Origin: Alphaproteobacteria bacterium
Lineage (GTDB): Bacteria > Pseudomonadota > Alphaproteobacteria > SHVP01
Assembly: GCA_038121105.1 (NCBI GenBank)
Contig: JAYONB010000007.1
Span: forward strand, 119,365-183,364
Reading direction: 5' to 3'
DNA length: 64,000 nt
Made by a program: the position numbers and the translations under genes. Positions 5,775 through 58,465 of this stretch are shown piece by piece (the first letter of the stretch is position 1; every line of letters starts with the position of its first letter). The notes beneath the pieces were generated by a model. The model was given only the letters and a program-made list of their open reading frames with translations. It ran no database searches and was not told where the DNA came from.

Positions 5775-6686
5775 TTAGTTGGCGGTCGGGACTTCGCCGG
5801 TTTCCTCGAAGCGCGCTGCAATTTGGCGCGCTTTCTCGGCACGGGCCGCGGCAAAATCCTTGGGCGCGCCGGGCTTGCCCTCGTAGGCGAATTCTTCTTT
5901 GGCTTCCTCGACCCATCTCGCGTACTCGGCCTTGCTGACCGCACGCACCATGATCGGCATGAAGCCATGGCCCGAACCGCAAAGCTCGGAGCACATGCCG
6001 TAATAAACGCCTTCCTTTTGGATCTCGACCCAGGTCTCGTTGATGCGGCCCGGCACGGCGTCGATCTTGATGCCGAGGTTGGGCAGGGCCAACGAATGAA
6101 TCACGTCGGTCGCCGTCGTCAGGATCCGGATCTTAGTGTTGACCGGCAGCACCACGTCGTTGTCGGTGGTGAGCAACCGGACTTGGCCATCTTCCAAATC
6201 CTCGTCTTCGACGATCACGGCATCGAACGTCAGGTTGTCGCTATCGGGATATTCGTAGCTCCAGAACCACTGATTGCCGATCGCCTTGATGGTCATTTCG
6301 GCGTCGACCGCGCGGTCGGAGAAATACAACAGCCGGAACGACGGCACCGCGATCACCACCAGGATGACGATCGGGATCACCGTCCAAAGGACTTCCAGCG
6401 CCGTGTTGTGGGTGTTGGTGCTCGGGTTCGGGTTCTTCGAGGCCCGGAAGCGCAGCATGATGTAGACCATCAGCAGCAGCACGAATGCCGCGATCACGGT
6501 GATGATGACCAACAACAAGTTATGGAAATCGTTGATCCGCTCCATCGTCGGCGAGGCCGCTTCGCGCAAGCCCATTTGCCAGGGCGCCGAGGTGCCTTCA
6601 AAAGCCTGCGCCAGCGCCACCCCCGTCGTCAGTGCAAAGGTGGCAAGCAGCGCGACCGCTGCGGTAACAATGCGTGAAATCGACAT
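5775..6686 (-). CDS. ctaC: cytochrome c oxidase subunit II
   Basis: Signal peptide, two transmembrane helices and the CuA site CSELCGSGH. Confidence 0.95.
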   Translation of the reverse strand: MSISRIVTAAVALLATFALTTGVALAQAFEGTSAPWQMGLREAASPTMERINDFHNLLLVIITVIAAFVLLLMVYIMLRFRASKNPNPSTNTHNTALEVLWTVIPIVILVVIAVPSFRLLYFSDRAVDAEMTIKAIGNQWFWSYEYPDSDNLTFDAVIVEDEDLEDGQVRLLTTDNDVVLPVNTKIRILTTATDVIHSLALPNLGIKIDAVPGRINETWVEIQKEGVYYGMCSELCGSGHGFMPIMVRAVSKAEYARWVEEAKEEFAYEGKPGAPKDFAAARAEKARQIAARFEETGEVPTAN

Positions 6687-7031: not shown

Positions 7032-8462
7032 ATGAGCCAGCCTTCGCCCCAAGAACTCTTTTTTACCCGCACCGGCCTCGACGAAAAGCGTGTCGAAGGC
7101 CTCGTCGGCGAGGCCCTGCACGGCATGGATGACGGCGAGATTTTCCTGGAATACCGCCAGTCCGAGAGCTTTTCCTTCGATGACGGGCGGCTCAAAGCCG
7201 CGGCCTACGACACCGACCAAGGTTTCGGCCTACGCGCGGTTTCCGAAGATTCCACCGGCTACGCCCATGCCGCCGAGCTTTCCGAGGACGCCATCAAACG
7301 CGCCGTCTCCACGGTGCAAGCCGTGCGTGGCGGCAATGTGGGCACCGCCGCGGCAGGTCCTGCGCGCACCAACAACACGCTCTATGTCGACGACAATCCG
7401 CTCAACGAGGTGCCGTTCGAAGACAAGATCAAGCTGATGCAAGACATCGACGCCTATGCCCGCGCCAAAGACCCGCGCGTGCGCCAGGTCTCGGCCTCGC
7501 TCGCCGGATCGTGGCAGGTCGTCCACATGATCCGCGCCGACGGCCACCAGGTCGGCGACATCCGCCCCCTGGTCCGTCTCAACGTCTCGGTCGTGGTCGG
7601 CGACGGCGACCGCCAGGAGACCGGCTCGCACGGCACCGGCGGCCGCACCGGTTACCTCGGCTATATCGATCCCGCGGCTTGGCAAGGCCAAGTCGACGAA
7701 GCCTTGCGCCAGGCCCTGGTCAATCTCGAAAGCATCGATGCGCCCGCCGGTGAGATGACGGTCGTACTCGGCCCCGGCTGGCCCGGCATCTTGTTGCACG
7801 AAGCCATCGGCCATGGCCTCGAGGGCGACTTCAATCGCAAAAAAACCTCCGCCTTCGCCGGCTTGATGGGCGAACAGGTCGCCGCCAAGGGCGTCACCGT
7901 CGTCGACGACGGCACGCTCACGGATCGCCGCGGCTCGCTCACCGTCGATGACGAAGGCACGCCGACCAACCGCACGGTCCTGATCGAAGACGGCATTCTC
8001 ACCGGTTACCTGCACGACCGGCTCAACGCGCGGCTGATGAACATGGCGCCCACCGGCAACGGTCGCCGCCAGTCCTACGCGCACATGCCGATGCCACGCA
8101 TGACCAACACCTACATGCTGTCGGGCGATCGCGATCCCGCGGAAATTCTAAGCGGCGTGAAAAACGGTCTCTATGCGGTGAACTTCGGCGGCGGCCAGGT
8201 CGACATCACCTCGGGCAAGTTCGTCTTTTCCTGCACCGAGGCCTACATGGTCGAAGACGGCAAAGTCGCCGCCCCGGTCAAAGGCGCCACCCTGATCGGC
8301 AACGGTCCCGACGTGCTGACCAAGATCAGCGGCATCGGCACCGACATGGGCCTCGATCCGGGCATCGGCACCTGCGGCAAAAACGGCCAAGGTGTTCCCG
8401 TCGGCGTCGGCCTCCCCACCATCCGCGTCGACGGCCTGACGGTCGGCGGCACCGCGGCCTAG
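7032..8462 (+). CDS. tldD: metalloprotease TldD
   Basis: TldD/PmbA family with the HEAIGHGLEGD motif. The start was chosen at MSQPSP (7032) inside the longer track ORF. Confidence 0.9.
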   Translation: MSQPSPQELFFTRTGLDEKRVEGLVGEALHGMDDGEIFLEYRQSESFSFDDGRLKAAAYDTDQGFGLRAVSEDSTGYAHAAELSEDAIKRAVSTVQAVRGGNVGTAAAGPARTNNTLYVDDNPLNEVPFEDKIKLMQDIDAYARAKDPRVRQVSASLAGSWQVVHMIRADGHQVGDIRPLVRLNVSVVVGDGDRQETGSHGTGGRTGYLGYIDPAAWQGQVDEALRQALVNLESIDAPAGEMTVVLGPGWPGILLHEAIGHGLEGDFNRKKTSAFAGLMGEQVAAKGVTVVDDGTLTDRRGSLTVDDEGTPTNRTVLIEDGILTGYLHDRLNARLMNMAPTGNGRRQSYAHMPMPRMTNTYMLSGDRDPAEILSGVKNGLYAVNFGGGQVDITSGKFVFSCTEAYMVEDGKVAAPVKGATLIGNGPDVLTKISGIGTDMGLDPGIGTCGKNGQGVPVGVGLPTIRVDGLTVGGTAA

Positions 8463-16590: not shown

Positions 16591-17544
16591 ATGACTTCGC
16601 CCGACGACACCGTCCTTCCCGACTCCGTGCGCGGCCACTGGGTCGACCGCAGTCCGGCCCGCCTACGCCCTTACCTGCGCCTGTCGCGCCTCGACCGCCC
16701 GATCGGCACCTGGCTCCTGGTATGGCCGGGTTGGTGGGCCATTGCGCTGGCCGGCGCGCTCACCGCCGGCGCCCCCGACACGCGACCCTGGTTCGGCCTA
16801 CCCGATCTGTTTTTGCTGGCGCTTTTCGGCATCGGCGCGCTCGCCATGCGCGGCGCGGGGTGCACCTATAACGACATCGTCGACCGCGACATCGATGCGC
16901 AAGTCGAACGCACCCGTGGCCGCCCGATCCCGTCGGGCGCCGTCTGCGTGCGCGCCGCCGTGGCGTGGCTGATCCTCCAAGCGCTGATCGGCTTTGCCGT
17001 CCTCGTCACGTTCAACGCGTTTGCGATCTGGCTCGGCGTCGCCTCGCTCGCTTTGATCGCGGCCTACCCGTTCATGAAGCGCATCACCTGGTGGCCCCAA
17101 CTGTGGCTCGGTCTCGCCTTCAACTACGGCGCGCTGTTGGGTTGGGCCGCGGTCACCGGCGGCCTCTCCGCCGCCCCGATATTGCTGTATGTGGGCGGCA
17201 TCTTCTGGACGTTGGGCTACGACACCATCTACGCCCACCAAGACACCGAGGACGACGCCCTCGTCGGCGTCAAATCCAGCGCCCGCTGGCTCGGCACCCG
17301 CACCCGGCCCTTTCTTTTTGTCGCCTACGCCGCCACCACGATCCTGATCGCCGCCGCCGGCGCAACGGCCGGGCTCCACTGGCTGTTCTACCCCCTGCTC
17401 GGCCTCGCCGCGTTGCATCTCGCCTGGCAGGCCCGCGCCCTCGACATCGAAGACCCTGCCGACTGCCTCGCCAAGTTCCGCAGCAACCACCACACCGGCG
17501 CCTTGGTATTCCTGGCGATCGTCGTCGGCAGCGTCCTGGCCTAA
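16591..17544 (+). CDS. ubiA: 4-hydroxybenzoate polyprenyltransferase
   Basis: UbiA motif YNDIVDRDIDAQVERTRGRPIPSG and about nine transmembrane helices. ATG at 16591; the track ORF from 15772 is an antisense-overlap artefact. Confidence 0.9.
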   Translation: MTSPDDTVLPDSVRGHWVDRSPARLRPYLRLSRLDRPIGTWLLVWPGWWAIALAGALTAGAPDTRPWFGLPDLFLLALFGIGALAMRGAGCTYNDIVDRDIDAQVERTRGRPIPSGAVCVRAAVAWLILQALIGFAVLVTFNAFAIWLGVASLALIAAYPFMKRITWWPQLWLGLAFNYGALLGWAAVTGGLSAAPILLYVGGIFWTLGYDTIYAHQDTEDDALVGVKSSARWLGTRTRPFLFVAYAATTILIAAAGATAGLHWLFYPLLGLAALHLAWQARALDIEDPADCLAKFRSNHHTGALVFLAIVVGSVLA

Positions 17545-17570
17545 CCCCCCAACGCCGCACTTCTAGGATG

Positions 17571-17865
17571 TCATCCTGAGGAGGCGCCAAAGGCGCCGTC
17601 CCGAAGGGCCCGCCGACGCACCGCAAGGCGTCCGCATTCTTCCGCGGACGCCGCGCGCACCGCACACCCGCCCCCAACAAACTCCTCCCCCTCTTGGAGG
17701 GGGAGGCCGGGAGGGGGTCTTCGCCCTAATGGATTCCGGATGCCACCAACCCCCTCCTCAATCCTCCCCCTGCCAAGCAGGTGGAGGAGGCTCGAGGGCC
17801 CAATCGCCTCAATTGTCGTCATCCTGAGGAGGCGCCAAGGGCGCCGTCTCGAAGGGCGCCGCAAA
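17571..17865. repeat. composite intergenic repeat cluster: A-module (GTCATCCTGAGGAGGCGCCAARGGCGCCGTCYCGAAGG) x2, internal hairpin, and B-module polypyrimidine/polypurine hairpins x2
   Basis: A at 17571-17610 and 17818-17860; hairpin GGCGTCCGC-attcttcc-GCGGACGCC at 17627-17653; B at 17682-17720 and 17743-17790. Confidence 0.8.
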
Positions 17866-17874
17866 GCAAGATCG

Positions 17875-18648
17875 CTACTGCAGTGTCGGCAGCAACTGCT
17901 TGTAGCCCTTGAGCTTTACCTTCACCCCGTTCTTGTGAAGCCGCGCGGTGTACGCCGCCCGCGCCTCGGGGTTGGTCGCGGCCTCAAGCAAAAACGCCTC
18001 CAGCGTCATCTCCGGCGCGATGCCTTCGTGGGCCGCCTGCAACACGCGCTCGTGCCCGTAGGTCTGAAAATTGCGCTCGCGCGCCTCGACTTCGCTGTAG
18101 CCGACCAGCGCGCCGTCGTGCCCCATCGCGGGCGCGGCGCTCTGGTACATATAGACCTCTTCGCGAAGCCCGACCGCATCGATCATCGCCAAGATGCCGG
18201 TCAGTTTGCCGAAGGTGTAGGCCGAGCCGTCGCCGTCCGGACCCAACTCGGTGTCGTGCATGACCTCGAGCTGTTCCTCGGTCAACCACGTGACATACGT
18301 CGTCAACCGCGTGCCGGGCGAGGGCGCCAGCATCGCGGGGATCGCGCCGTAACTCGAAAACCGCGCCGAATAGACCACGTCGAACCCGGTCAGCGCCGTC
18401 TTAAGCACCGGGATGCCTTCCTCCTCGCCCAGGTCGGGGTACTTGTTCACCAGTTGCTGGGGCGAGGCGTTCGAGCCATAGGCCAGGACCGGAATGCGCT
18501 CGGCCGTATCGTCGGGCGGGTTCATGCGCTTCAACGGCACCGGCGCGCCCTGAAACAAGATGTAGCTCGATTTCGGCACGTCGTAGGGATAGCTCTTGGC
18601 GCGGACCAGCCGTTCGGCGTCGCTCGGTTCTGTCATGTCTTGCCTCAT
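17875..18648 (-). CDS. hypothetical protein, possibly with a gamma-glutamylcyclotransferase/AIG2-like fold
   Basis: A VLAYGSN motif is reminiscent of GGCT-like proteins. I have no strong match. Confidence 0.35.
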   Translation of the reverse strand: MRQDMTEPSDAERLVRAKSYPYDVPKSSYILFQGAPVPLKRMNPPDDTAERIPVLAYGSNASPQQLVNKYPDLGEEEGIPVLKTALTGFDVVYSARFSSYGAIPAMLAPSPGTRLTTYVTWLTEEQLEVMHDTELGPDGDGSAYTFGKLTGILAMIDAVGLREEVYMYQSAAPAMGHDGALVGYSEVEARERNFQTYGHERVLQAAHEGIAPEMTLEAFLLEAATNPEARAAYTARLHKNGVKVKLKGYKQLLPTLQ

Positions 18649-31136: not shown

Positions 31137-31173
31137 CGCGCGCTCGGATTCCGGGTCCCACACCCCAGCGTCT

Positions 31174-31432
31174 CTCATCCTGAGGAGGCGCCGGACGGCC
31201 AAAGCCTGCCATGGGCCTGCCGAATGGTCCCGAAGGACGCCCACCCAATTGCCGGGGCCGAAACCCGCAAAGCGTCCGCTGGCCTCCGCGGACGCTTTGC
31301 GCGCGGCACCTTTACCCCCACCCAACTCCTCCCCCTGCGCGTCAGGGGGAGGCCGGGAGGGGGTCGCCGCGAACAACGCGCGGTACCGCCAACCCCCACC
31401 TTCATCCTCCCCCTCAAGAGGGAGAGGAGATG
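31174..31432. repeat. second copy of the composite A-hairpin-B repeat, plus a B-module variant
   Basis: A-like at 31174-31245; hairpin AAAGCGTCCGC-tggcctcc-GCGGACGCTTT at 31268-31297; B at 31325-31363; B' at 31401-31432. Confidence 0.8.
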
Positions 31433-32328: not shown

Positions 32329-34410
32329 TCAGGCGATTTTCAGCCAGACCGCGGTGTCGTGGAACGCGGCCCCGCCGTTGGGCGGCGGCGAATCCGCCCC
32401 CGTCAGCGCGTTGATCCCAATCCCATCGACGAACGCCTTGTTGGGCCAAATCCCTTCAACGATCACGACGTCGGGCTGCACGCCGTCGAACAGCTGGGCA
32501 TGCACCTTCACTTCGCCGCGCTTGTTGCCCAGCACCACCAACGCCGCGTCGGTCACGCCGAGCCCAGCGGCGGTGTCGGGATGGATCATCACCTTGGGCC
32601 GGCCTTCGCGCTTGGTCGAGGTCGGCGTTTCGGTGAACGACGAATTGAGATAGCTGCGCGCCGGGGCCGTCACCATGCGCAACGGATGCGCGTCGTCGAC
32701 CTCCTCGATGACCTCTTGATGATCGGGCAACGGCGGCATCACCGCGGCATCGGGCCCCAAGTCTGCCCAACGCGGCGCGAAATGAAACTTGCCGTCGTCA
32801 TGGGGAAAGCCGTTGACGAAATGCGCGGTGTCGAAATCGGGCATGCAATCTATCCAGTTGTCGTCCCACGCCGCCGCTTCGGGCCACCCCGAGGCGCGCA
32901 ACGTCGCATCGACCAGTTCGCGCGCGGTCATCCCAAAACCGGGATGCTCGGCACCGACCCGCGCGGCGATGCCTTGCAAGACTTCGTGGTTGGAGCGCGA
33001 CTCGGCCAATGGCTCGATGGCCTGCAAGCCAAGCTGCAAGTACGAATGCCCCCCGCCGATGTAGAAATCGTCGTGTTCGAGGAACGTCGTCGCCGGCAGC
33101 ACCAGATCGGCGGCCTCGGCCGTTTCGGTCATGAACTGCTCGTGCACGCACACGAACAAATCGTCGCGGGCAAAACCCTGGCGCACCAAATTGTGCTCCG
33201 GCGCCACCACGACCGGGTTGGTGCTCTGGATCAACATCGCCGTCACCGGCGGTCCGTCGCCGAGATCGCGTTTGTCGCCGGTCAGCACCGGCCCGATACG
33301 CGACATGTCCAACGTCCGGATCGACGGATCGATCGCATCCAAGCCTTCGATCAAGGTCGAATCGAGATGGTAGATATCGGAATTGCTGAAGAACGCGCCG
33401 CCGCCCGGCACCAGCCATTTGCCGGTCACGCTCGGCAGGCACGAGACCGCATGCACGTTGGCCGCCCCGTTGCGCGAGCGCGAAAAACCGTACCCCACGC
33501 GGATGAATGCCCGTTCGGTGGCGCCATAGGCGCGAGCGAAACCGACGATCTCGTCGACGCTCAACCCGGTGATGCGCGCCGCCCATTCGGGCGTCCGGGT
33601 CTTGAGGTGTTCTTCCAGCTCGTCCGGCACGTCGGTGTAGCGCGCCATGTAATCGCGATCGGCATAGCCTTCGGCAAACAGCACATGCATCATCGCCGCC
33701 GCCAGCGCGCCGTCGGTGCCGGGCCGCAAGCAAATATGCTGATCCGCCACTTCCGCCGAACCGTTGCGATAGGGATCGACCACGATCAGCTTCGCCCCGC
33801 GTTCCTTGCGCGCCCGCGCCACGTGGTTCATCACGTTGACTTGCGTCGCCACCGCATTGGTGCCCCACAGGATGACCATGTCGGCCTCGGCCATCTCGTA
33901 CGGGCTTGCGCCCATGAACGCGCCGACGCCGGCCTTCCAACCGGGATGCACCGTGCCGGTGCAAATCGTCTTCTTCATGCCCGAATAGCGCATCACGTGG
34001 CGCAACCGGTTGATCCCGTCGCGCTGCACCCGGCCCATCGTGCCCGCGTAGTAGTAGGGCCACACCGCTTCGCTGCCCAACGACTGCGTCGCTTGCGTGA
34101 ACTTCTCAGCGACAAGATCGAGCGCATCGTCCCAGCCGATCGGCGCAAACCCGCCCCCGGCTTGTTTGAGGAGCGGCGTCGTCAGTCGATCCGGGTGATG
34201 CACGCGCTCGGCATAACGCGCGACCTTGGCGCAGACCACGCCGTCGGTATAGCGCTGGGTCTTGGCCCCGCGCACCCGCCCGATCGTCTGGGCATCCAAC
34301 CGCTCGATCTCCAGCGCACACTGGCTCGGACAATCGTGCGGACACGTCGAAAAAACCGTCTGGGGCATATCCATGGCGGCCACGTTAATTGGGGCACTCC
34401 GGAGCGGCAA
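32329..34410 (-). CDS. molybdopterin oxidoreductase family protein (MopB superfamily)
   Basis: N-terminal 4Fe-4S CPHDCPSQC motif followed by a molybdopterin-binding domain. Length 693 aa. Confidence 0.75.
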   Translation of the reverse strand: MPLRSAPINVAAMDMPQTVFSTCPHDCPSQCALEIERLDAQTIGRVRGAKTQRYTDGVVCAKVARYAERVHHPDRLTTPLLKQAGGGFAPIGWDDALDLVAEKFTQATQSLGSEAVWPYYYAGTMGRVQRDGINRLRHVMRYSGMKKTICTGTVHPGWKAGVGAFMGASPYEMAEADMVILWGTNAVATQVNVMNHVARARKERGAKLIVVDPYRNGSAEVADQHICLRPGTDGALAAAMMHVLFAEGYADRDYMARYTDVPDELEEHLKTRTPEWAARITGLSVDEIVGFARAYGATERAFIRVGYGFSRSRNGAANVHAVSCLPSVTGKWLVPGGGAFFSNSDIYHLDSTLIEGLDAIDPSIRTLDMSRIGPVLTGDKRDLGDGPPVTAMLIQSTNPVVVAPEHNLVRQGFARDDLFVCVHEQFMTETAEAADLVLPATTFLEHDDFYIGGGHSYLQLGLQAIEPLAESRSNHEVLQGIAARVGAEHPGFGMTARELVDATLRASGWPEAAAWDDNWIDCMPDFDTAHFVNGFPHDDGKFHFAPRWADLGPDAAVMPPLPDHQEVIEEVDDAHPLRMVTAPARSYLNSSFTETPTSTKREGRPKVMIHPDTAAGLGVTDAALVVLGNKRGEVKVHAQLFDGVQPDVVIVEGIWPNKAFVDGIGINALTGADSPPPNGGAAFHDTAVWLKIA

Positions 34411-34472
34411 GGCGGACGCGGGTCAATACCGACGGCCCAATGGATCAGCACTCGGACGCACGGCTCCGAGCC

Positions 34473-34515
34473 AACTCCTCCCCCTCACCGAGGGGGAGGG
34501 CAGGGAGGGGGTTGG
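34473..34515. repeat. B-module hairpin repeat (AACTCCTCCCCCTcaccgAGGGGGAGGGCAGGGAGGGGGT)
   Basis: Same polypyrimidine/polypurine palindrome as at 17682 and 31325. Confidence 0.75.
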
Positions 34516-41686: not shown

Positions 41687-41797
41687 GGCTGAGCGGGCAT
41701 GGTACAAAGGTCCCTCCCAACCACCAAACACTCTCACGGCCCTGCCCCCGCCAGCACCCATCGCGATGCCATCTTTGCCCACCCGCGCTGTCCAAAC

Positions 41798-41931
41798 GCC
41801 TCCCCCTGCTTTCAGGGGGAGGTCGCCCAGCGGCGTAGCCGATGGGTGGGAAGGGGCCGCTACCCGAGCAACCGTCTTCGCCCCTTTGCCACCAACCCCC
41901 TCCCTGCCCTCCCCCTGCCCGCAGGGGGAGG
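41798..41931. repeat. two B-module-like hairpin repeats in the xseA/purD divergent region
   Basis: CGCCTCCCCCTgctttcAGGGGGAGGTCGCC (41798-41828) and CCCTCCCCCTgcccgcAGGGGGAGG (41907-41931). Confidence 0.7.
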
Positions 41932-43270: not shown

Positions 43271-43305
43271 CGCCGCTCACCCCATAACAAGATTGCTCAT
43301 CCTGA

Positions 43306-43340
43306 GGCGAATCGCGAAGCGTTGCGTCTCGAAGGACGAG
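43306..43340. repeat. solo A-module-like repeat (TCATCCTGAGGcgaatcgcgaagcgttgcGTCTCGAAGGACGAG)
   Basis: Shares the TCATCCTGAGG ... GTCYCGAAGG ends with the copies at 17571, 17818 and 31174. Confidence 0.6.
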
Positions 43341-48489: not shown

Positions 48490-50295
48490 TCAACGCCGCC
48501 CGAACAGCCGCTCAATATCAGGCAGCTGCAGTTCGACATAGGTCGGGCGGCCATGATTGCACTGCCCGGAGTTCGGCGTGACTTCCATCTCGCGCAGAAG
48601 CGCGTTCATCTCGGCCGCCGTCATCCGTCTCCCCGCCCGAACCGACCCATGGCAAGCCATGGTGCTGCACACATCGTTGAGCCGTTCGGTCAATGCTGTC
48701 GTGTCGTCCAACTCGGCCAGGTCATCCGCAAGGTCGCGCACCAAACCTTGAATATCGACCTCGCCCAGCAGCGCGGGTTGTTCGCGCACCACCACCGCGC
48801 CAGCGCCGAACTGATCGATCACCAAACCCAATTCGGCCAGCTCGTCCGCGCGATCCAACACCCGGCCCACGGCCGCCTCGTCCATCTCCACCACTTCGGG
48901 GATCAACATGCCCTGCCGCGCGACGCCGTTCTGTAGCGCCTTCTTCATGCGCTCATAGACCAAGCGCTCATGTGCGGCATGCTGATCGACAACGATCAAG
49001 CCGTCGGCGGTCTGGGCCACGATATACGTCTGGTGTAGCTGCCCCACCGCTGCGCCAAGCGGGTAGGACGCTTCGGGCGCCTCCCCCAATCCAACCTCCG
49101 CCGGCCGTGCCGCCGGGGCGAATCCGTCGGGTTCCTCGCCCCGGGCCGGCATGCCAGGCGGCGCCTGATGCTGAAACGCGCTGGCCGCCTCGGACAGCCC
49201 GGTCCGCGACGTTCCCTCGGGACGGGCGCCATAGAACGCGCCCTGCCCGCCCGGTCGAAATGCCGCCGCCGCCTCCGCAGCAACCGTCGAAGAGGCGCGA
49301 TGTCCGGCCCCTGCCAGGGCGCGGCGTACCGTCGAAACGATCAACCCGCGCACCAACGGCTCGTCGCGAAATCGGACTTCCGCCTTCGCGGGATGGACAT
49401 TCACATCCACCGCCTCAGGCGGCACGGAAAGGAACAACGCCACCACCGGGTGTCGGTGCCGCGCCATCAAGTCCTGATAGGCGCCACGCAGGGCACCGGT
49501 GAACAACCGGTCCCGCACCGGTCGTCCGTTGACGAACAGATATTGCGCCTGGGCATTGCCCCGGTTCATCGTCGGCAACCCGGCGAACCCTGTCAGGCTG
49601 ATTCCCTCGCGCTCGGCCTCAACGGACACGCTGTTGTCGACGAAATCGCGCCCCATGACGGCGGCAAGGCGGTCGCGCGCAGCCGCCTCACCGGTGGCCG
49701 CGGCGTAGCTGAAGATCTCTCGCGCCGCCTCACGCAAGCTGAACCCAATGGTCGGGTTCGCCATCGCCAAACGCTTTGTGGTTTCGGTGATCGCCGTCGT
49801 TTCGGACCGATCGGTTTTGAGGAACTTCAAGCGCGCTGGGGTGGCGAAGAAAAGGTCTCGTATTTCGATCCGGGTTCCACCGGGAAGAGAGTCGGGCTGG
49901 AGATCACCCAGCCGCCCGGCATCGACATGCAATTGCCAAGCTTCGTCCGCCCCTCGGGCGCGACTGGTAATCGTCATGCGGCTGACCGATCCGATCGACG
50001 GCAGCGCTTCGCCACGAAAACCCAGATGCGCGATCCGCACCAGATCGTCCTCGGGCAGCTTCGAGGTGGCATGCCGCTCGACCGCAAGCGCCAGCTCGTC
50101 CCGCGCCATGCCATGGCCGTTGTCGGTAATGATGATTTGGTCTCGACCGGCCCCCGCGATGGCAACATCGATCTGCGTGGCGCCGGCGTCAATCGCGTTC
50201 TCGACAAGTTCCTTGACGACGCTTGCCGGACGCTCGACGACCTCGCCCGCCGCAATGCGGTTGACGGTGCCTTCGGGCAGTCGACGGATCGTCAT
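48490..50295 (-). CDS. mutL: DNA mismatch repair protein MutL
   Basis: GHKL ATPase N-terminus ([21 protein letters not shown]) and a C-terminal dimerisation domain. Confidence 0.95.
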
Positions 50296-51611
50296 AACTC
50301 TAGGGCGACCCGCCCCGTCCTGAGGTATTCGCGGGCGCGCACCTTGCCTTCGTCAACAGCCGGTTGGTCGAACGGGTTCACCCCAAGAAGATCCGCAGTG
50401 AGAATGGTCTCAAGCATGAAGTGCATAAACAACCCGCCCATCGCAGCCTCGTCGACGGCGGACAGCGTGATGACCCGAACGGGCCGCTTGTGCGCTACCA
50501 ATGTCTCCACCGTCGCGCGTGCCGAAGCCGCCACAATGTCGCCCGTCGACCGCCCGCCCAGATAGTCGAGCGCGGCGATTCCGGCGACCTGTTCCGGTGC
50601 AACCGTTAGACCCGTCCCTTGCGACGGCGGCAGGAGAACGGTGAAGACTTTGTCGGCGGGACCATCGAGATAAAGCTGCAACTGACTATGTTGATCCACC
50701 GGTCCGAGCGCGGTGACCGGCGTCATACCTCGTCCGTCCTTTCCCAGGCTCTCGGCCCAAAGCTGGGCATACCACTGGGTGAACCATCTCAAACGCTCGT
50801 CATAGGCCAACATAACGGAGATAGGCCGTCCGGCACGGTAGTATCCCGCCACCAAAGCCGCGGCCTCTGCTGCGTCAGAACCGCCCAAAGCCACCGCCGC
50901 CCCCTGCCGGATTGCCGCAACGTCGAGGCCAAGGATCAAGGCCGGCAACATGCCCACCAACGTCAGGACGGAGTACCGCCCTGCCACCGTCGACGGATGA
51001 TCCAGAACGCGAAAGCCCCAGGACAGGGCGAGTGCGCGCAACGGGTGGCCTCCCGGGACCGCAATGCCCAGCACGCGATCCGCAAGCGCGGGGCGCCCAA
51101 TCGCCGCTTCAAGACGCGGCAACACAACCAAGGCCTGCGCCATGACCTCTACCGTCGACCCCGACTTGGAGATAAACAGGAAACCTGTGCGCTTGAGATC
51201 CACGCGCTCCAAAACTTCTTCGAGGCGACCAGGTTGGAGGTTCGCCATCACGTGGAGTCGGCACCCTCGCCCCGGCAACGCCGTCGCAAGCGCCTTGGCC
51301 GCCAAACCCGACCCGCCGATCCCCAGCAATACGACATCATCGAACCGGCGGCGAAAGTCCTCCGCAATGCGTTTCAAGTCGGCGAGATCATCCTCCGAAT
51401 GGGCGGCGCCGATACAATCGAACGTGGCGTCGTCCCCCGCCGCCTCGCGGAGCGTCTCCAAGCGGACCGTCGCGCGCTCAAGGTCATTGACGAGCGCCAA
51501 AGAGGTCAACCCGGCCGACCCAATGGAGTCGGCATAGCAGTGGCGCGTGGCGTGAACGAAGGGTGGGCGCATGGGTGGCGCCAAACTAGCAGAGCAGAAA
51601 CGCCGGTCCAA
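50292..51611 (-). CDS. pgi: glucose-6-phosphate isomerase (short bacterial type)
   Basis: SIS/PGI motifs LLGIGGSGL and GRYSVLT. The start may lie at an internal Met (~51572). Confidence 0.78.
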
Positions 51612-51623
51612 CGACCACTGGAC

Positions 51624-52955
51624 CTAAGGCGTGGTTTCAACGCCCTCGGGGTCGCCGACGACAACGACCGACATCGCATCGACGTCCAGCAGCCGGCGGG
51701 CAACCCTTTTGACATCGTTGAGCGTCACTTGGTTTACCAAGCCGGCGCGGCGATCGAGATAATCGATACCAAGGTCCAATACCTGGAGGGTCACCAACAT
51801 ATTTGCGATCCGGGCGTTGCTGGTCAGGCTAAGAGGAAAAGCGCCGGTGGTATAGGTCTTGGCCGCCTCCAGTTCAGCGGCGGTAATACCCTCGCGAGCG
51901 ATTTTGTCGATTTCATCGCGGATTAGCGAAAGCGATTCGGCGAGTTGACCGTTCTGGGTGCCGACACCTCCCAGGACCAGACCGGAATGCTCATAGGGCA
52001 CTACCGCGCTGTAGACCGAGTAGGCGAGGCCGCGTTTTTCCCGTATCTCTGCGTAAAGGCGCGACGTAAAACTGCCACCCCCCAAGACCCGGTTCATGAG
52101 CGCCGCCGCGAAATAGTCCGGATCGTTTCGCTTGATCCCAGGCATGGCCCAGATCAGGACGCTTTGCGGGATAGGTTGTCTGATGACTTCAACGCCGCCC
52201 CTGGCGGCAGGAACGACCTCAGGCACAACGATCCCGTTCGCCGCCGTCGCAGGTAGATCGCCAAAGGTCTCATCGAGCAAGTTCGCAAGGCGTGATGCCG
52301 AAATATCACCCACCACGCCCACGATAAGATTCTCTTTCGCGAACCTTCGGCCAACGAAGGTACGAAGGTCTTCGACGGAGACCGCAGCGACCGAGTCAGG
52401 TATGCCACGGGTTGGGCGCCCGTAAGGGTGATCGGGATAGATTTTCTTGAAAAGAGTCCGGCCGGCAATTGTATTGGGGTTCTGGGCACGCGATCGAATG
52501 CCGGTAATAACCTGGGATCGAATCCGTTCGACCGGCTCGGGGTCGAAGCGCGGCTGCGTCAACGAAAGCCGCAATAGACGAAATGCCTCGTCGGTATTTT
52601 CGGTAAGGGTTCGCAGGCTTCCGCTGAACCCGTCGCGACCGGCGTCATAGGACAGAGAAATCGCGAGTTCCTCAAGCCGGGCCTGGAAGGCTTGCGAATC
52701 GAGATCGCCTGCCCCTTCATCAAGCAAGCCGGACAAAAGATTCGCCAAACCCTCCTTGCCGGCGGGATCGAGCGACGCCCCGCCGCGGAAATAGACCTCG
52801 ACCGCCAAGATCGGGATCGAGGGCTCCTCGACCAGCCAAGCCGTGATCCCGCCTGGGGAACGCACCTCTTGAATTTCTGCCGCCCACGCGGGCCCGGCGG
52901 ACCACCACACACTCAGTGCGACGAACAGGAAGGCGCTGCGCACCACGGCCTTCAT
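51624..52955 (-). CDS. M16 family zinc peptidase, probably the non-catalytic partner subunit
   Basis: M16 fold with no HxxEH motif. Signal peptide MKAVVRSAFLFVALSVWWSAGPAWA. Confidence 0.78.
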   Translation of the reverse strand: MKAVVRSAFLFVALSVWWSAGPAWAAEIQEVRSPGGITAWLVEEPSIPILAVEVYFRGGASLDPAGKEGLANLLSGLLDEGAGDLDSQAFQARLEELAISLSYDAGRDGFSGSLRTLTENTDEAFRLLRLSLTQPRFDPEPVERIRSQVITGIRSRAQNPNTIAGRTLFKKIYPDHPYGRPTRGIPDSVAAVSVEDLRTFVGRRFAKENLIVGVVGDISASRLANLLDETFGDLPATAANGIVVPEVVPAARGGVEVIRQPIPQSVLIWAMPGIKRNDPDYFAAALMNRVLGGGSFTSRLYAEIREKRGLAYSVYSAVVPYEHSGLVLGGVGTQNGQLAESLSLIRDEIDKIAREGITAAELEAAKTYTTGAFPLSLTSNARIANMLVTLQVLDLGIDYLDRRAGLVNQVTLNDVKRVARRLLDVDAMSVVVVGDPEGVETTP

Positions 52956-52969
52956 CGAACCAACACCCA

Positions 52970-54343
52970 TTAGCTTGGCTGCCGCGTTCGGAGGATACCG
53001 GTCACCGACCGGCGCTTCTCGAAGACATACCGAGCCGCGGCATTGACGTCGTCGAGGGTGACCGCCCTGACGCGATCGGGCCAGCTCTCGGCATCTTCGA
53101 TGCTGCGTCCGTTGGTCAGCGCTTCGCCGAAAATCCGGGCGGCGCCCTGAACATCGTCTCGCGCATAGATCGCCTGGGCGAGGAGGAATTTCTTGGTGCG
53201 GTCGAGCTCGTCCTGCGTAACGCCATTGTCGACCACATCTTCGATCAGCGCTTCCATCCGCGCTTCGATGTCGTCCAACGTGGCGTCGCCACGCGGCACG
53301 GCAAACAAAAAGAACTGACTGGGCCCGACATCGGTTGCAGAATAGAACGCACTCGCCCTGACTGCGATCTGAGTGTCGATCACCATGTTGCGGTATAGCC
53401 GGCTGGTCGACCGGCCACCCAAGATTTGGGCGAGCAGTTGAAGCGGCAAAGCGTGTTGGGTCTCGCCCCACTGGTAACTCGGCGCCAAATAGGAACGGCG
53501 CCAGGTATCTTGGGTGACCTGAGGGTGAAACATCTCAAGTCGCCGCGCCGCGAGCTGCGGCGGCTCTTTCGGTCTGTTACGCACTGGCTGTGCCCGCTGC
53601 GGGATCACGCCGTAGTATTTTTCGGCCAGTGGTTTCAGCTCTTCGAGCGTGACGTCGCCGGCGACGATTAAGATCGCGTTGTTTGGCGTGTAGTAGGTCC
53701 GGTACCAGTCGAGAGCGTCGTCCAGGGTCAGTTCGCGAATTTCGTTCTCCCAACCGATCACGGGAATCCTATATGGGTAAGCAATGTACTGCGCCGCATT
53801 CATTTGTTCGAAGAACAACCCGTTCGGCGTGTTATCAACCCGCGAACTCCGTTCTTCCAAAATGACCTTGCGCTCGGCAAGTACTTGCGCCTCGGTCAAG
53901 GTGAGGTTGGTCATGCGATCGGCCTCTAGCCGCATCACGGTTTCCAGTCGATCAGCCGCCACAGTTTGGAAATAGCCGGTGTAGTCGTAGGACGTGAAGG
54001 CGTTCTCCCGCCCACCGTTGCGAGTCACGACCTCGGAAAATTCACCTGCCGGCACATCCCGCGTGCCCTTGAACATAAGATGCTCGAGAAAATGAGCGAT
54101 CCCCGACTTGCCGATCGGTTCGTCGGCCGATCCGGCGCGGTACCAGATCATCTGAGTGACTACCGGCGCGCGGTGATCTTCGATCAAAACAACTTGCAGC
54201 CCGTTCTCAAGAACGAATGTCTTGGGGTCGAACAGGCCGGCCACGGCAGAGCCTCGGGCCATGAACACGACCACGAGAGCCACGAGCAGGACGACAATAC
54301 GGTGGCGATTCCGCAGGCGTTGGCGGTGGAAAAGGCTGAACAT
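52970..54343 (-). CDS. M16 family zinc peptidase (catalytic subunit)
   Basis: Inverted zinc motif HFLEHLMF. Confidence 0.85.
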   Translation of the reverse strand: MFSLFHRQRLRNRHRIVVLLVALVVVFMARGSAVAGLFDPKTFVLENGLQVVLIEDHRAPVVTQMIWYRAGSADEPIGKSGIAHFLEHLMFKGTRDVPAGEFSEVVTRNGGRENAFTSYDYTGYFQTVAADRLETVMRLEADRMTNLTLTEAQVLAERKVILEERSSRVDNTPNGLFFEQMNAAQYIAYPYRIPVIGWENEIRELTLDDALDWYRTYYTPNNAILIVAGDVTLEELKPLAEKYYGVIPQRAQPVRNRPKEPPQLAARRLEMFHPQVTQDTWRRSYLAPSYQWGETQHALPLQLLAQILGGRSTSRLYRNMVIDTQIAVRASAFYSATDVGPSQFFLFAVPRGDATLDDIEARMEALIEDVVDNGVTQDELDRTKKFLLAQAIYARDDVQGAARIFGEALTNGRSIEDAESWPDRVRAVTLDDVNAAARYVFEKRRSVTGILRTRQPS

Positions 54344-54422
54344 GTCCCTAGGTAGTCATGCCGACCGGCACGTTGCAAGGGGCCAGTGCGGCGGGAACGG
54401 TCACATGATAGTCAGGCCGGGG

Positions 54423-54998
54423 TTAAAACACCCCAGACAGGATCGATCGACTCTTGCGGCGAATGATCGGCGTTTCCTGTTCGCTTGCGCCCGTATTGGC
54501 GGCAGAATCCTGCTGGCGAAGCCGACGCTCTTCTTCCGTGGGATTGACCACCTCGGCATCATCATCGTCGGGTCGAACGCGATCGAGCAAGCGGTCCACG
54601 AAACCGCCCTCTCGCTCGGCCAGTTGGGTGGTTTCTTCGTTCAGGACTCTGCGAATGTCGGGATCGGCATCCTGAGCACGCGCCACCTGCAGCAGGGCCA
54701 CCTCGCCCGGGGTGCGGGCCGCCCCCGGCGCGGCCTGAGAGTCGCCCACAAGTGCCGCTTGGGCGCGGGTCGTCGGGTTCTGCTCTTGGGGGCGTGGCGC
54801 ACCGGGCTGTGGGGGGCGCAAGTTGAAGTCGGGCGGAATAGTCAATGGCGCTTTGCTGACAACGGTGAACTCGTCAGGCGGCTCGGGATCAAGGCCCAGC
54901 GTGCGGCTGGCATTCGAACAGGCTGCCATTGCCAAAGCGGCCAGGACGAGCGTTGCCGCGGTGAGGTGTGGTTTAGGGTTACTTATGGTCATCTCCAT
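54423..54998 (-). CDS. DUF3035-like lipoprotein
   Basis: Lipobox LAALAMAAC and a low-complexity acidic tail. This is the typical neighbour of lspA in alphaproteobacteria. Confidence 0.5.
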   Translation of the reverse strand: MEMTISNPKPHLTAATLVLAALAMAACSNASRTLGLDPEPPDEFTVVSKAPLTIPPDFNLRPPQPGAPRPQEQNPTTRAQAALVGDSQAAPGAARTPGEVALLQVARAQDADPDIRRVLNEETTQLAEREGGFVDRLLDRVRPDDDDAEVVNPTEEERRLRQQDSAANTGASEQETPIIRRKSRSILSGVF

Positions 54999-55461
54999 CG
55001 GCTGTCCCGCGGGATCGGAAGAACAGGCCCTCTGCCAAGATCATAACGACGCCGACGACGATTGCCGAGTCGGCGGCATTGAACGCCGGCCAATGATACC
55101 CCGCGACGTGGAAGTCGAGGAAGTCCACAACGGCGCCATGGGCGATCCGATCGATCGTATTGCCCAACGCGCCGCCAATGACCCCGCCAAGCGCCACCGC
55201 GAGCCACCGTGTCTCCGCACGGCGCATCCAGACCACAAGCGCGATGGCGATCACGATGGCCAAAGCGCTGAACACCCATCGTCCCCAAACCGGGCTCTGG
55301 AACAGACTGAAGCTGATCCCGGGGTTGAACGTCAAAACGAGGTTGAAGAACCCGGTGACCGCAAAACCGGTGCCCGCTTCGATCGCGCCAAGAATCCAAA
55401 GCTTGGTGACTTGATCGACCACGACCACAACGGCGGCCACGGGCAACCCAACCCGCAGCAT
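54979..55461 (-). CDS. lspA: lipoprotein signal peptidase II
   Basis: LspA motifs (NPGISFS, GGALGNTIDR). The ATG overlaps the ileS TGA (ATGA). Confidence 0.85.
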   Translation of the reverse strand: MLRVGLPVAAVVVVVDQVTKLWILGAIEAGTGFAVTGFFNLVLTFNPGISFSLFQSPVWGRWVFSALAIVIAIALVVWMRRAETRWLAVALGGVIGGALGNTIDRIAHGAVVDFLDFHVAGYHWPAFNAADSAIVVGVVMILAEGLFFRSRGTADGDDHK

Positions 55462-58307
55462 CAGGCAGCTTGCTCGTTTAAGCCGGCTACGACATCCGCA
55501 CAGCGACCGCATAGATCGTTATCGGCCTCGGGATCGGTCGCAACTTCAGGCAGAACCTTCCAGCAACGCTGGCACTTCCCGCCCTCGGCCATCGCCGGCA
55601 CCACGGCAATACCCGGCACCTCGTCCAGACGATAGGCGTCCGTCGGCGGCGCATCGGCCACCAGCGAAAGTGCCGAGGTAATACAAAGTTGCGCGAGATC
55701 GATATCGGCACACGCCGCAACGGTTTCTCGATCGGCATAAACCGTTGGCGCCGCTTGCAGCGACGATCCGATCCGCTTTTCGCGACGCTCGATCTCCAAA
55801 GCACCGGTGACGACCCGACGGAGTTGCCGGATTTTTTCCCATTTGTCGGCAAGCGCGTCGTTTTGCCAGTCGGCCGGGATCGCCGGGAACATCTGCAAAT
55901 GCACGCTCTCGTCTTCAGGGTACCGAGCAAGCCACGCTTCTTCGGCGGTGAAACAGATAAAGGGCGCGAACCACGTCGTCAGGCAGCGAAACAGCTGATC
56001 GAGCACCGTACGTGCCGCACGCCGCACGACCGATTCGGCTGCGTCGCAGTAGAACGTGTCCTTGCGGATATCGAAATAGAACGCCGACAAATCGTTGGTG
56101 CAGAAGTTGTAAAGCTGCACGTACATGTCGTGGAAGTCGAAGGCATCACAGCATTGGCGTACGTGACGATCCAGCGCCCACAGCCGATGCAACACCCAGC
56201 GCTCCAGGTCCGGCATCTCTTCCATCGGCAAGCGCTCGTCCTCGCCGAAGCCCGCGAGGTTGCCTAGCATGTAACGCATCGTGTTGCGCAGCTTGCGATA
56301 GGCGTCGACCTGCCGTTTGACGATTTCATCGCCAATACGCAGGTCGTCGGTATAGTCGGACCCGACGACCCAGAGCCGAAGAATGTCGGCCCCGCTTTGG
56401 TTTGCTATATCGAGCGGGCTCACAACGTTGCCCAGCGACTTGGACATCTTCCGCCCTTCGCCATCCATGACAAAGCCATGGGTCAGGACCGATTCGTAAG
56501 GCGCCCGCCCGCGCGTTCCGCATGACTCGAGCAACGAAGAATGGAACCAACCCCGGTGCTGGTCCGAACCTTCCAGGTAGAGCGACGCCGGCCACTGCAA
56601 ATCGGGCCGCTGTTCGAGGACGAAGCTATGGGTCGAACCCGAGTCGAACCACACATCGACGATATCGGAGACTTTTTCGTAGTCCGCTGGATCGTGGTCG
56701 TCGCCCAAGAATCCAGCGCCATCCTCGTCGAGGAACCAGGCATCGGCGCCGCGCTCCTCGAAAGCTGCCGCGATCCGATCGTTGACGCGTTCGTCGCGCA
56801 GCGGCTCACCCGTCTTGCGGTTGACGAAGACGGTGATGGGCACGCCCCAGGCGCGCTGGCGCGAGATCACCCATTCCGGGCGATGCTCGATCATCGAACG
56901 GATACGGTTTCGACCTTGGTCGGGAACCCAACGGACTTCGTCGATCGCCTTTAGCGCTTTCGCGCGGAGGTCGTTAGTCGACATGCTGATGAACCACTGT
57001 GGCGTATTGCGAAAGATGACCGGCGCCTTGGACCGCCACGAGTGCGGATATTGGTGTACCAAGGATCCCGTCGCGAATAAGCCGCCGTAAGTTTCTAGCG
57101 CCTCGATCACAACCCGGTTGGCATCGCCCTCTTTGCCGCTCGGATGCAGAATCTTGTGCCCTGCAAAGAGCGGCACGTCTTCGACATACACCCCTTGAGC
57201 ATTCACGGTTTCAGGTACGGCGATGCCGTGTCTTTGACCCAGGTCGTAGTCGTCCGCGCCGTGGCCCGGCGCTATGTGGACGAACCCGGTGCCTTGATCG
57301 GTCACCACAAAATCGCCGGCAAGGGCCGGGACGGGAAAATCATACCCATGATCGGCAAACGGATGTCGCGCAACCACACCTTCGAGGTCGCGTCCGGGAA
57401 ACGGTGCCGAGAGGGCCCATTCGGTGATGCCCGCCTCGGTCTTCACAGCGTCGGCAAGCGCCGCGGCGATGACGACCTTTTCGCCCGGCACCGCGGTACT
57501 GCCGTCGGCGACGGCGCCTACCTCGGCCACGAGATAGTCGATGTCGGCACCAAAAGCGATCGCCCGATTGCCCGGCAAGGTCCAGGGCGTCGTCGTCCAA
57601 ATGACAATGCTCGCGCCGTTCAACTCCGGCTTTCCCGCGCTGTCGGCCACGGCAAAGCGAACCATGACCGTCGTCGACGTATGGTCGTGGTACTCGACCT
57701 CCGCCTCGGCCAGCGCCGTTTGTTCGACGACCGACCACATCACCGGCTTGGAGCCCTTGTAGAGCCCGCCATTCATCAGGAACTTGCAGATTTCGCGCGC
57801 GATCTGAGCCTCGGCTTTGAAGGCCATGGTCGAGTAGTAGTTGCTCCAGTCGCCGACGACGCCCAGACGTTTGAACTGGTCGGCTTGGACGCCGATCCAC
57901 TTCTCGGCAAATTCGCGGCATTCTTGCCGGAATTGGGCGACCGGCACTTCGTCTTTGTTCTTCCCGGCCTTGCGATAGTTCTGTTCGACCTGCCATTCGA
58001 TCGGCAAGCCGTGGCAGTCCCAACCCGGCACGTAGTTCGCATCCTTGCCCATCATTTGCTGCGAGCGATTAACGACATCCTTGAGCACCTTGTTCAACGC
58101 GGTGCCCATGTGAAGGTGGCCATTCGCGTACGGCGGCCCGTCGTGCAGGATGAATTTCTCGCGGCCCTTGCTCTGTTCGCGCAAGCGTTCGTAGAGCTTC
58201 ATTTCGGCCCAGCGCTCAAGGAACGCCGGCTCCCGTTTCGGCAAGCCGGCACGCATCGGAAAATCCGTCTCGGGCAGGAAGACGGTCGATTTATAGTCTT
58301 TAGACAT
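55461..58307 (-). CDS. ileS: isoleucyl-tRNA synthetase
   Basis: HMGH and KMSKS class I motifs ([19 protein letters not shown]). Confidence 0.97.
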
Positions 58308-58465
58308 CAGAAGAATGGATTCCAGTTAGGGTAAGAAAACGGCAGACGCGGACCGGCCTCGACTAGAGTGCCGGGGTGATAATTCGCGGAATTAGTTGCC
58401 GATTTTGCCTGGACATGGCGGATTTTGTACCAGGGGCTCTGCAGCCTGTCGAGATACCTTGCGAG

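Follow-up and report, generated by a model that had tools for sequence, protein, structure and literature searches.

Three families of palindromic repeats in a probable BIME/RIME-like mosaic between ubiA and a convergent gene of an uncultured alphaproteobacterium

We analyzed a stretch of 64,000 nucleotides (hereafter, the window; positions 119,365 to 183,364 of contig JAYONB010000007.1, assembly GCA_038121105.1) from an alphaproteobacterium of the lineage SHVP01 and, in particular, the block of structured repeats that fills the intergenic spacer downstream of ubiA. The window has a GC content of 64.7% and carries the housekeeping genes ubiA, ubiD, xseA, purD, mutL, ileS and ribF. The closest relatives of its UbiA protein are 81-91% identical and, where traced, come from metagenomes or metagenome-assembled genomes (MAGs); the nearest named relatives, in Minwuiales, Rhodospirillaceae and Oceanibacterium, are about 61-63% identical. 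The stop codon of ubiA (17544) is separated by a 330-nt spacer from the stop codon (17875) of a convergent gene that encodes a 257-aa protein, and five modules follow one another in this spacer, from left to right A1, C, B1, B2 and A2. The initial annotation had described these modules at 17571-17865, and all of them are present in the sequence.

Module A1 (17569..17609; here and below, coordinates refer to the plus strand) starts 25 nt past the ubiA stop and consists of the tag TGTC, the 5' flank TCATCCTGAGG, the apex GGCGCC-AAA-GGCGCC and the 3' flank GTCCCGAAGGGC. It is followed by the C-module (17620..17664), a lineage-specific GC hairpin, CGCAAGGCGTCCGC / GCGGACGCCGCGCG, with arms at 17622-17635 and 17644-17657 and a conserved 3' extension, CACCGCA (folding z = −3.46). 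B1 (17670..17718) comprises a weak C-rich head, the hairpin CTCCTCCCCCT-cttgg-AGGGGGAGG (17682-17706) and the G-rich tail GGGAGGGGGT (17709-17718), and is separated by a variable spacer (17719..17743) from B2 (17744..17790), an inverted copy with the conserved head CACCAACCCCCTCC and the hairpin TCCTCCCCCTGC-caa-GCAGGTGGAGGA (17762-17788). B1 and B2 are, then, inverted copies of one unit that can be read as a C-rich head plus a hairpin or as a hairpin plus a G-rich tail. The B1 tail GGAGGGGGT (17710-17718) is exactly complementary to the B2 head ACCCCCTCC (17749-17757), such that B1 and B2 fold together into one long hairpin of about 108 nt (17682-17789), with the variable spacer as the loop of the tail/head stem. 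A2 (17817..17857) bears the tag CGTC and shares its GGCGCC apex with A1; its end is 18 nt short of the convergent gene's stop codon. The two A-modules are same-strand direct repeats, with 86% identity over 51 nt; thus, the large-scale mirror arrangement proposed at first holds for the order of the modules and not for the orientation of A. The modules and the block as a whole are predicted to form stable hairpins, in line with the structures initially proposed, and the whole block folds much more stably than shuffled sequences (z = −4.2 as DNA; z = −5.4 as RNA, minus strand).

In total, the window contains 4 A-modules, 2 C-modules and 7 B hairpins, that is, 13 modules, all intergenic and distributed over five intergenic regions. 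The earlier count of at least eight copies in 64 kb, always intergenic, is therefore exceeded, and the five clusters named at that stage were all recovered, each between open reading frames (ORFs). The pattern TCATCCTGAGG-N8-38-YCGAAGG, describing A, matches three times in the window compared to 0.00 matches expected from 100 shuffles; the remaining A-module, at 31175, carries a long insert and was detected via CATCCTGAGG. The tags of the A-modules in the window are TGTC, CGTC, TCTC and GCTC. The B pattern, CCTCCCCCT-N0-14-AGGKRGAGG, matches at seven sites (17684, 17763, 31328, 31406, 34477, 41799 and 41908; 0.00 expected), and the C pattern, GCGTCCGC-N8-GCGGACGC, at the GC hairpin of the ubiA spacer and at 31272-31295 (0.01 expected).

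The second cluster shares the order A, C, B1, spacer, B2 with that in the ubiA spacer and is collinear with it for about 250 nt. Its A-module (31173..31240), with an interior 26 nt longer, starts 37 nt past the stop of an inositol-monophosphatase-family gene and is followed by a C-module (31265..31309) with a perfect 14-bp stem, CGCAAAGCGTCCGC / GCGGACGCTTTGCG; by B1 (31314..31364), with the head ACCCCCACC, a hairpin at 31326-31352 and the tail GGGAGGGGGT; and by B2 (31388..31430), with a head at 31392-31400 and a hairpin at 31406-31427, which abuts the stop of a convergent diacylglycerol-kinase-family gene. The distance from C to B1 is 32 nt in both clusters, and that between the B1 and B2 hairpins is 79 nt in the first and 78 nt in the second.

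Comparison of the ubiA spacer among relatives revealed a graded series. The spacer is 2 nt long in L411 (UbiA 81% identical) and 6 nt long in L407 (85%), with no module in either; it is 81 nt long in L409 (83%), with a degenerate A; 114 nt in L001-L004 (89%), with one A that has a different apex; and 125 nt in L410 (91%), with two tandem A-modules that are 16 nt apart and share the GGCGCC apex of the window. In the window, in a near-identical strain (L380, the same locus) and in a related strain (L379, an ortholog), the spacer is 330 nt long and C-B1-B2 lies between the two A-modules. The passage from an empty spacer through one A and a tandem A to the full composite implies that the block is inserted DNA rather than an ancestral regulatory region. 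As reconstructed from these relatives, the steps at ubiA were the arrival of A, its duplication and, then, the insertion of C-B1-B2. Because both A-modules pre-date C-B1-B2 at this site, the A pair is not a target-site duplication. The locus thereby offers an unusually clean stepwise series for the assembly of mosaic repeat clusters.

The same composite occurs elsewhere. Copies of the modules outside the window were found in genome, metagenome and viral-contig collections, and, when metagenomes were scanned with the right arm of C plus the B1 hairpin as the anchor, 38 stretches were retrieved, nine of which carry ten copies of the A-C-B1-B2 composite with different flanks, in estuarine or marine samples with a GC content of 56-65%. 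The 12 aligned copies, including the two in the window, show conserved blocks and variable linkers and are all co-oriented: an A with a locus-specific apex; CCGCAAGGCGTCCGC-loop-GCGGACGCCGCGCGCRCCGCAC; CCTCCTCCCCCT...AGGGGGAGGGCAGGGAGGGGGTCGCC; CACCACCAACCCCCTCCTCAATCCTCCCCCT...; and, often, another A at the right. When orthologs are merged, the fixed order A-C-B1-B2-(A) is found at no fewer than seven independent loci. In one MAG, which bears the label 'Proteobacteria bacterium casp150-mb.32', A-A-B1-B2 follows an unrelated gene and C is missing.

Outside the source lineage, A and B are mostly found apart. Separate scans of viral contigs for the A and B patterns yielded at least 120 stretches each; among the matches listed, A is absent from all 118 B-selected loci and is present at only one of 120 B1-bearing genome loci. 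The 3' flank of A joined to B at 15-45 nt or at 60-90 nt was found in three and four viral stretches, respectively, probably due to chance occurrences of CGAAGG. A universal A+B composite was accordingly rejected, and A and B are independent families outside the source lineage. In the collections scanned, C was found in the source lineage only. Thus, the block consists of three families, not one: of the REP/MITE-like family (repetitive extragenic palindromes; miniature inverted-repeat transposable elements) that the initial annotation had in mind, what stands is that the modules are non-coding palindromes, repeated outside the window and secondarily inserted.

The A-modules share a layout of a tag, TCATCCTGAGG, an interior and a 3' part, (G)TCTCGAAGG or CCTCGAAGG, followed by AT or AC. 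Conservation is concentrated at the base, in the tag YSTC and in ATCCTGAGG, which is paired to CTCGAAGGAT around a GA bulge; the interiors are highly variable (160 distinct ones in 172 copies). The stem opens with AT (ATCCT...AGGAT) and is bipartite, with about 19 pairs, the GA bulge and one mismatch, and what stands in the place of a loop is itself a variable hairpin of 8-50 nt. In the two copies of the ubiA spacer, the 3' partner is AGGGC and the A-T closure is lost. The tags CCTC (75), CGTC (29) and TGTC (27) account for 131 of the 175 distinct copies (75%), and the triplets that most commonly follow CGAAGG are ATG (38), ACG (35) and ATC (34). Covariation was assessed in a gap-free alignment of 20 copies of equal length with a specified structure consisting of the basal stem, the GA bulge, a middle stem and an apical stem; RNAalifold did not recover the apical stem from an alignment of A made with MAFFT, owing to misplaced gaps. 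Pairing in this structure is maintained in 83.9% of cells compared to 74.1 ± 1.3% in shuffles, and both sides of a pair are changed in 37 cells compared to 18.5 ± 2.5 in shuffles (none of 500 reached 37) and 4-15 in slid controls. At the four central apical pairs, C-G and G-C are interchanged in about half of the sequences. The covariation together with the variable interiors indicates that the base of A is constrained in sequence and the apex in pairing only. A reading of CUGAGG...CGAAGG as a hammerhead-like motif or a kink-turn was rejected on account of a misfit of the core; the stem with a GA bulge accounts for it better.

Outside the window, A commonly forms inverted dimers about 30 nt apart. 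Such dimers were found in 26 Rhizobium plasmid records (PLSDB records, which are without repeat annotation) and at 23 places in a replicon of Methylobacterium bullatum (NZ_LR743510.1, L414-L419; labelled 'plasmid 1' though it is 2.83 Mb long and linear). In the latter, A occurs about once per 20 kb, nearly always in inverted heterodimers with 74 nt from start to start, in which a long GGAGC...GCGG apex in one partner is combined with a short CCGCG.AGCGG apex in the other. A second A subtype, CATCCTGAGCCGG...(long apex)...GTGACGAAGGG, is common in contigs of the source lineage (L375, L376, L387, L389, L297 and L320), a lineage that is very rich in A, as indicated by 10 A-type modules in 4 kb of L376. 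In L375, at 6520-6640, three tandem 5' halves of A with a spacer (AACGTCATCC(C/T)GAGGCGCGGCCCCAACC.GCCGTAAAA.GAA) precede a complete A, suggesting that A has slipped or been duplicated in part. In L387 (about 8060-8130) and on the minus strand of L381 (about 1000-1095), the 5' flank of A is reverse-complemented, with CTCAGGATG in place of CATCCTGAG and the remainder of A normal, so that a short segment at the base of the hairpin is locally inverted.

The B family is far more widely dispersed. A genome scan for the B1 core, CCTCCCCCT-N3-9-AGGGGGAGG-N2-3-GGGAGGGGG, which has 27 fixed bases, yielded at least 120 stretches, with taxa assigned by record title. Among the matches listed, the core is identical over at least 27 nt in Alphaproteobacteria (Devosia, Caulobacterales), Betaproteobacteria (Azoarcus, Dechloromonas, Sulfuricella, Undibacterium), Gammaproteobacteria (Dyella, Rhodanobacter, Cellvibrio, Rahnella, Vibrio cholerae, Aeromonas) and Desulfuromonadota (Geobacter, Geopsychrobacteraceae), and, by the labels of MAGs, where mis-binning is possible, in Spirochaetota, Chloroflexi and bacteria of the candidate phyla radiation (Minisyncoccia). 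The listed loci span 36-72% GC, and the 27-nt core is exactly kept throughout. The arms of B are runs of G and C, GGGGGAGG-NN-GGGAGGGGG, to which ATGGGG is added in many Betaproteobacteria. For 49 of the 137 listed copies, an inverted partner could be detected downstream, in the layout of the window, i.e. hairpin and G-tail, spacer, C-head and hairpin; the doublets in other genomes are 65-79 nt apart. With inverted ends, the doublet measures about 110-140 nt; MITEs are characterized by terminal inverted repeats, a target-site duplication and a length of 100-400 bp. At one genome locus (L350, 71% GC), there are six B1 matches in a single 8-kb stretch, most of them in a tandem array of complete doublets with a period of about 150 nt, indicating that B doublets are able to amplify as arrays. 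BLAST of the whole block against plasmids returned two short B1 matches only, probably because of the low-complexity filter and the shortness of the modules. An intramolecular triplex (H-DNA) formed by the mirror-like head and pyrimidine arm of B2 was considered and rejected: in other taxa, the head resembles a direct repeat of the pyrimidine arm and is the Watson-Crick partner of the tail of the partner unit. The G-arm AGGGGGAGGGCAGGGAGGGGGT (34491-34512; also the composite consensus) contains GGGGAGGG and GGGCAGGG, which fit GGGNAGGG, the FtsK-orienting motif of E. coli; because B is palindromic, the motif is on both strands, and a polar role is unlikely.

The orientation of A is associated with the replication strand as gauged by GC skew. 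The strand that reads TCATCCTGAGG is the C-rich strand in 73 copies and the G-rich strand in 27 (p = 5 × 10−6). The bias persists when duplicates are removed (58 of 80) and among singletons without an inverted partner (50 vs. 14 of 64, p = 7 × 10−6), and is pronounced in the contigs of the source lineage, with skews of 0.05-0.11 (32 vs. 6, p = 2 × 10−5, a few overlapping or orthologous matches being counted). All seven independent composite loci are on the C-rich strand. In the window, GC skew is negative in every 2-kb bin except one, and none of the 13 modules falls outside the negative part. The association of A with the majority direction of the genes is weaker than that with skew (31 vs. 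49, p = 0.057). The bias of A to the C-rich (lagging) strand suggests a single-stranded, replication-linked process of spread or loss.

These features can be set against known repeat systems. Bacterial interspersed mosaic elements (BIMEs) are intergenic mosaics of short GC-rich palindromes and linkers, located mostly after genes or between convergent genes, with copy number and content that vary between strains (PMC3333891, PMC2817692). The present block resembles them as a mosaic of palindromes with conserved linkers in a fixed order. However, the BIMEs of E. coli and relatives have REPs of alternating orientation, a REP-associated tyrosine transposase (RAYT; tnpA-REP) and a tag of the GTAG type, whereas here alternation is absent, the composite is co-oriented in a fixed order, the A copies are direct repeats, and three unrelated families are combined. 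The A-modules bear the tag of the CGTC superfamily of REPs, a predominantly alphaproteobacterial group with the tag CGTC, TGTC or CCTC, a stem starting from AT and frequent inverted dimers (PMC3733652), and share with it the AT start of the stem. The consensus had initially not been recognized as RIME, ERIC, BOX or Bru-RS. A does resemble this superfamily, yet it fits none of its four families: in CGTC-1 to CGTC-4, stems of 8-9 bp enclose loops of 4-5 nt and there is a CCA tail (PMC3733652), in contrast to the bipartite stem of A of about 19 bp, its apical hairpin in place of a loop and its lack of CCA, and the REP-encoded peptides of these families (VIPAKAGI, VIAGLDPAIH, VIPWLDHGI) indicate other sequences. 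The genus of the source organism is uncultured, and no repeat family has been described for it that the modules could match.

REPINs (REP doublets forming hairpins; Bertels and Rainey) consist of two inverted palindromes with a short spacer and are reported to be replicated by single-copy RAYTs and inherited mostly vertically within a lineage (PMC3337134). B1-spacer-B2 and the usual A dimers have this layout, in contrast to the direct repeats of A in the ubiA spacer. Unlike in such REPIN-RAYT systems, an identical B core is shared by different classes and phyla among the matches listed, and no flanking RAYT was seen. Rhizobial genomes contain RIMEs (intergenic mosaic elements specific to Rhizobium), Sm-repeats and AB/C palindromes, intergenic mosaics whose function is unknown (PMC2573895), and the present block is likewise an alphaproteobacterial mosaic of palindromes between genes, with A dimers occurring in Rhizobium plasmids as well. 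B-like units with a head and a hairpin are found in pSymB of S. meliloti, and A dimers and B-like units stand side by side in a Rhizobiaceae-like locus (L011). Their occurrence in Rhizobium and Sinorhizobium replicons makes a kinship of A and B with RIMEs or Sm-repeats possible; compared by description only, they differ in that the present host is not a rhizobium and that C and the composite order are lineage-specific. Finally, IS200/IS605 elements are defined by hairpins, act on one strand and excise and insert at the lagging-strand template, which results in an orientation bias with respect to replication (PMC3333891). The bias of A relative to GC skew, about 3-5:1, is similar; however, no TnpA or RAYT gene was found with the modules, and the bias might also come from orientation-dependent deletion.

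Taken together, the block is probably a BIME/RIME-like mosaic of several non-coding, non-autonomous palindromic repeats in a permissive spacer between convergent genes. Under this interpretation, A would be a REP-type hairpin, B1 and B2 the inverted halves of a C-rich/G-rich, REPIN-like palindromic doublet, and C a lineage-specific GC hairpin; the modules were added stepwise to a spacer originally of 2-6 nt. Their spread or survival would depend on a process that acts on single-stranded hairpin DNA at the replication fork, resembling that of HUH/Y1 transposases of the IS200/IS605 and RAYT type, and any effects on the flanking genes, such as the protection or ending of mRNA 3' ends, would be secondary. 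It is an ordinary kind of repeat mosaic, composed of families that are widespread and poorly described. In practical terms, such blocks should be masked as repeats in annotation, since spurious ORFs arise in them (e.g. 17571-17864, minus strand, 97 aa), and they will mislead predictors of small RNAs and terminators.

A bolder extension, which we regard as tentative, is that the A-modules are live substrates of a novel system mobilizing them as single-stranded DNA at the replication fork, that the B doublet is a single palindromic element common to several phyla, or both. The enzyme mobilizing A may recognize the conserved basal stem, the GA bulge and the tag only, leaving the apex free as long as it is paired. 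A transposase dedicated to CGTC repeats was not found by Di Nocera et al. in 2013 either (PMC3733652), and a mobilization system for A, if true, would supply a mechanism for these 'orphan' CGTC-type REPs of Alphaproteobacteria; the replication-strand bias is a testable lead on their spread, which their defining paper left open. A cross-phylum B element, if true, would imply horizontal spread with a carrier or recognition by a universal host factor, and the exact B core in distant bacteria is in any case unexplained and cheap to follow up. In the literature searched, the ubiA assembly series, the strand bias of A and the cross-phylum B core were not encountered, and searches with A and B sequence strings returned primer noise or nothing.

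Several observations weigh against the interpretation as a mobile repeat mosaic. The initial annotation had proposed a search for an associated RAYT or transposase elsewhere in the genome; tblastn with approximate RAYT and IS200 probes against 3.5 Mb of module-bearing loci from genome fragments gave one weak match, and with the same approximate probes neither the window nor the surroundings of any module revealed a RAYT. The ORF behind the weak match (L292, 4523-5026, Pseudoxanthomonas sp.) encodes 167 aa, has an HWH motif (LMPDHWHGLIE) and does not flank the B unit of its locus, which is about 3 kb away. No recurrent gene family was found next to B: the clusters obtained were spurious GC-rich ORFs and phage or gene transfer agent-like genes that the viral contigs share. 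A comparison of empty, tandem-A and filled sites revealed no target-site duplication, the flanks being too diverged. With respect to the strand bias, the GC skew of short contigs is a mere proxy of replication direction, and a replicate in 300 kb of M. bullatum was uninformative (skew below 0.02; 14 A copies, 12 of them in inverted dimers). Furthermore, the bias could arise through orientation-dependent loss rather than insertion: the G·T pairs of the top-strand A hairpin become A·C mismatches on the complement, so that the same skew could result if the stronger hairpin were deleted from the lagging-strand template. In addition, the composite is located downstream of a co-oriented gene in six of the seven independent loci.

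The last observation also speaks for the principal competing explanation, namely, that the modules are functional 3'-untranslated region (3'-UTR) RNA elements that end transcription or protect mRNA from 3' exonucleases. Some REPs of E. coli do protect or end the upstream mRNA. Consistent with such a role, each solitary or left-hand A-module of the window follows a co-oriented gene (ubiA, the inositol-monophosphatase-family gene and purD) and starts 25-37 nt past its stop, the first two clusters lie between convergent genes, the hairpins are very stable, and compensatory changes keep their pairing. Moreover, REPs in general are located mostly downstream of coding regions (Di Nocera et al., PMC3733652). 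However, the proportion of six in seven is not significant and, in the broad sample, where gene orientation was assigned with a crude gene caller based on GC content at third codon positions (GC3), sense and antisense copies relative to flanking tandem genes are balanced (34 vs. 32 for the 66 copies of A and 20 vs. 16 for B1), which argues against a strand-specific RNA role. Also against this explanation, the third and fourth clusters are between divergent genes, i.e. in promoter regions, and relatives manage with a spacer of 2-6 nt. Intrinsic terminators were rejected for lack of a conserved U-tract, and a single terminator-like match (B1, minus strand) is not kept in other copies. On balance, a function of the modules primarily in the 3'-UTR seems unlikely.

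An explanation that we rate as distinctly improbable from the sequence features at hand is that the modules are DNA structural or binding sites (cruciform, G-quadruplex or i-motif; gyrase, IHF or nucleoid proteins) that would serve chromosome organization. Sites for gyrase, IHF or other nucleoid proteins have been described for BIMEs. The long G- and C-runs of the B arms, the imperfect palindrome of about 108 nt formed by B1 and B2 and an orientation independent of transcription would all be compatible with such sites, and the exactness of the 27-nt B core across genomes of 36-72% GC points to sequence-specific constraint. On the other hand, the same sites are empty in relatives, and a symmetric binding site in duplex DNA leaves the strand bias of A unexplained.

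It is already very unlikely that the block encodes a small RNA or that it regulates a flanking gene in cis as a riboswitch or attenuator. The predicted structure is strong, and the CCUCC-rich arms superficially recall anti-Shine-Dalgarno motifs of alphaproteobacterial small RNAs. However, Rfam gave no match at the gathering score in the whole window and, at E ≤ 10, only chance matches far below threshold at 17500-17900, mostly to eukaryotic miRNA hairpins; no promoter-like site was detected in the block; and the block lies between two 3' ends, is missing at this locus in close relatives and has its modules repeated beside unrelated genes. Local duplication, gene conversion or slippage without mobility, or compositional chance, although suggested by the apex shared by the two A-modules of the ubiA spacer, the tandem A in L410 and the three tandem A 5' halves in L375, is refuted as a full explanation and remains one step in the history, given that 0 matches are expected by chance, that copies are found at no fewer than seven unrelated loci in many genomes and phyla, and that such events cannot put C-B1-B2 between two A-modules at separate loci.

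The other modules of the window are more isolated. A solitary B unit (34463..34512; hairpin 34475-34499, tail GGGAGGGGGT) lies between divergent molybdopterin oxidoreductase and ABC transporter genes. The sequence GCAAGGCGGACGC at 34405-34419, 57 nt to its left and overlapping a possible start of the molybdopterin oxidoreductase ORF, resembles C minus one arm and the loop, GCAAGGCG[TCCGC-loop-GCG]GACGC; it could reflect excision of a hairpin by slippage, or chance. Between the divergent genes xseA and purD, there is a B unit (41797..41857) with a hairpin at 41799-41822 and a degenerate G-tail at 41844-41857, separated by a mini-hairpin, CGCC-cagc-GGCG, and extra bases (41823-41857), followed by a B2-type unit (41889..41931) with the head ACCCCCTCC at 41895-41903 and a hairpin at 41908-41931. 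The layout of the former, a hairpin followed by GGCGCGAAGCGCC and GGAGGGGGAAG, is found also in unrelated viral contigs (L177 and L211), which identifies it as a recurrent B variant and not a local accident. A solitary A-module (43295..43340; tag GCTC, apex CGAATCGC-GAA-GCGTTGCG) starts 25 nt past the purD stop.

None of the 13 modules lies beyond 43340. In the part of the window from 50000 to 64000, GC content falls to about 0.60-0.63 and GC skew is near zero; the genes there are ordinary core genes, encoding a PGI-family protein, M16 peptidases, an IleS-like protein, RibF and an amidase. The convergent gene next to the ubiA spacer (17875-18648, minus strand) encodes a 257-aa protein without a Pfam domain, and an exact-protein look-up of this product found no match on record. 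The gene is flanked by ubiA on one side and by a CMD-family gene and then ubiD on the other, and its place is kept in the relatives that share the neighbourhood (UbiA 81-91% identical). This conserved synteny suggests that the 257-aa protein is an uncharacterized partner in ubiquinone biosynthesis.

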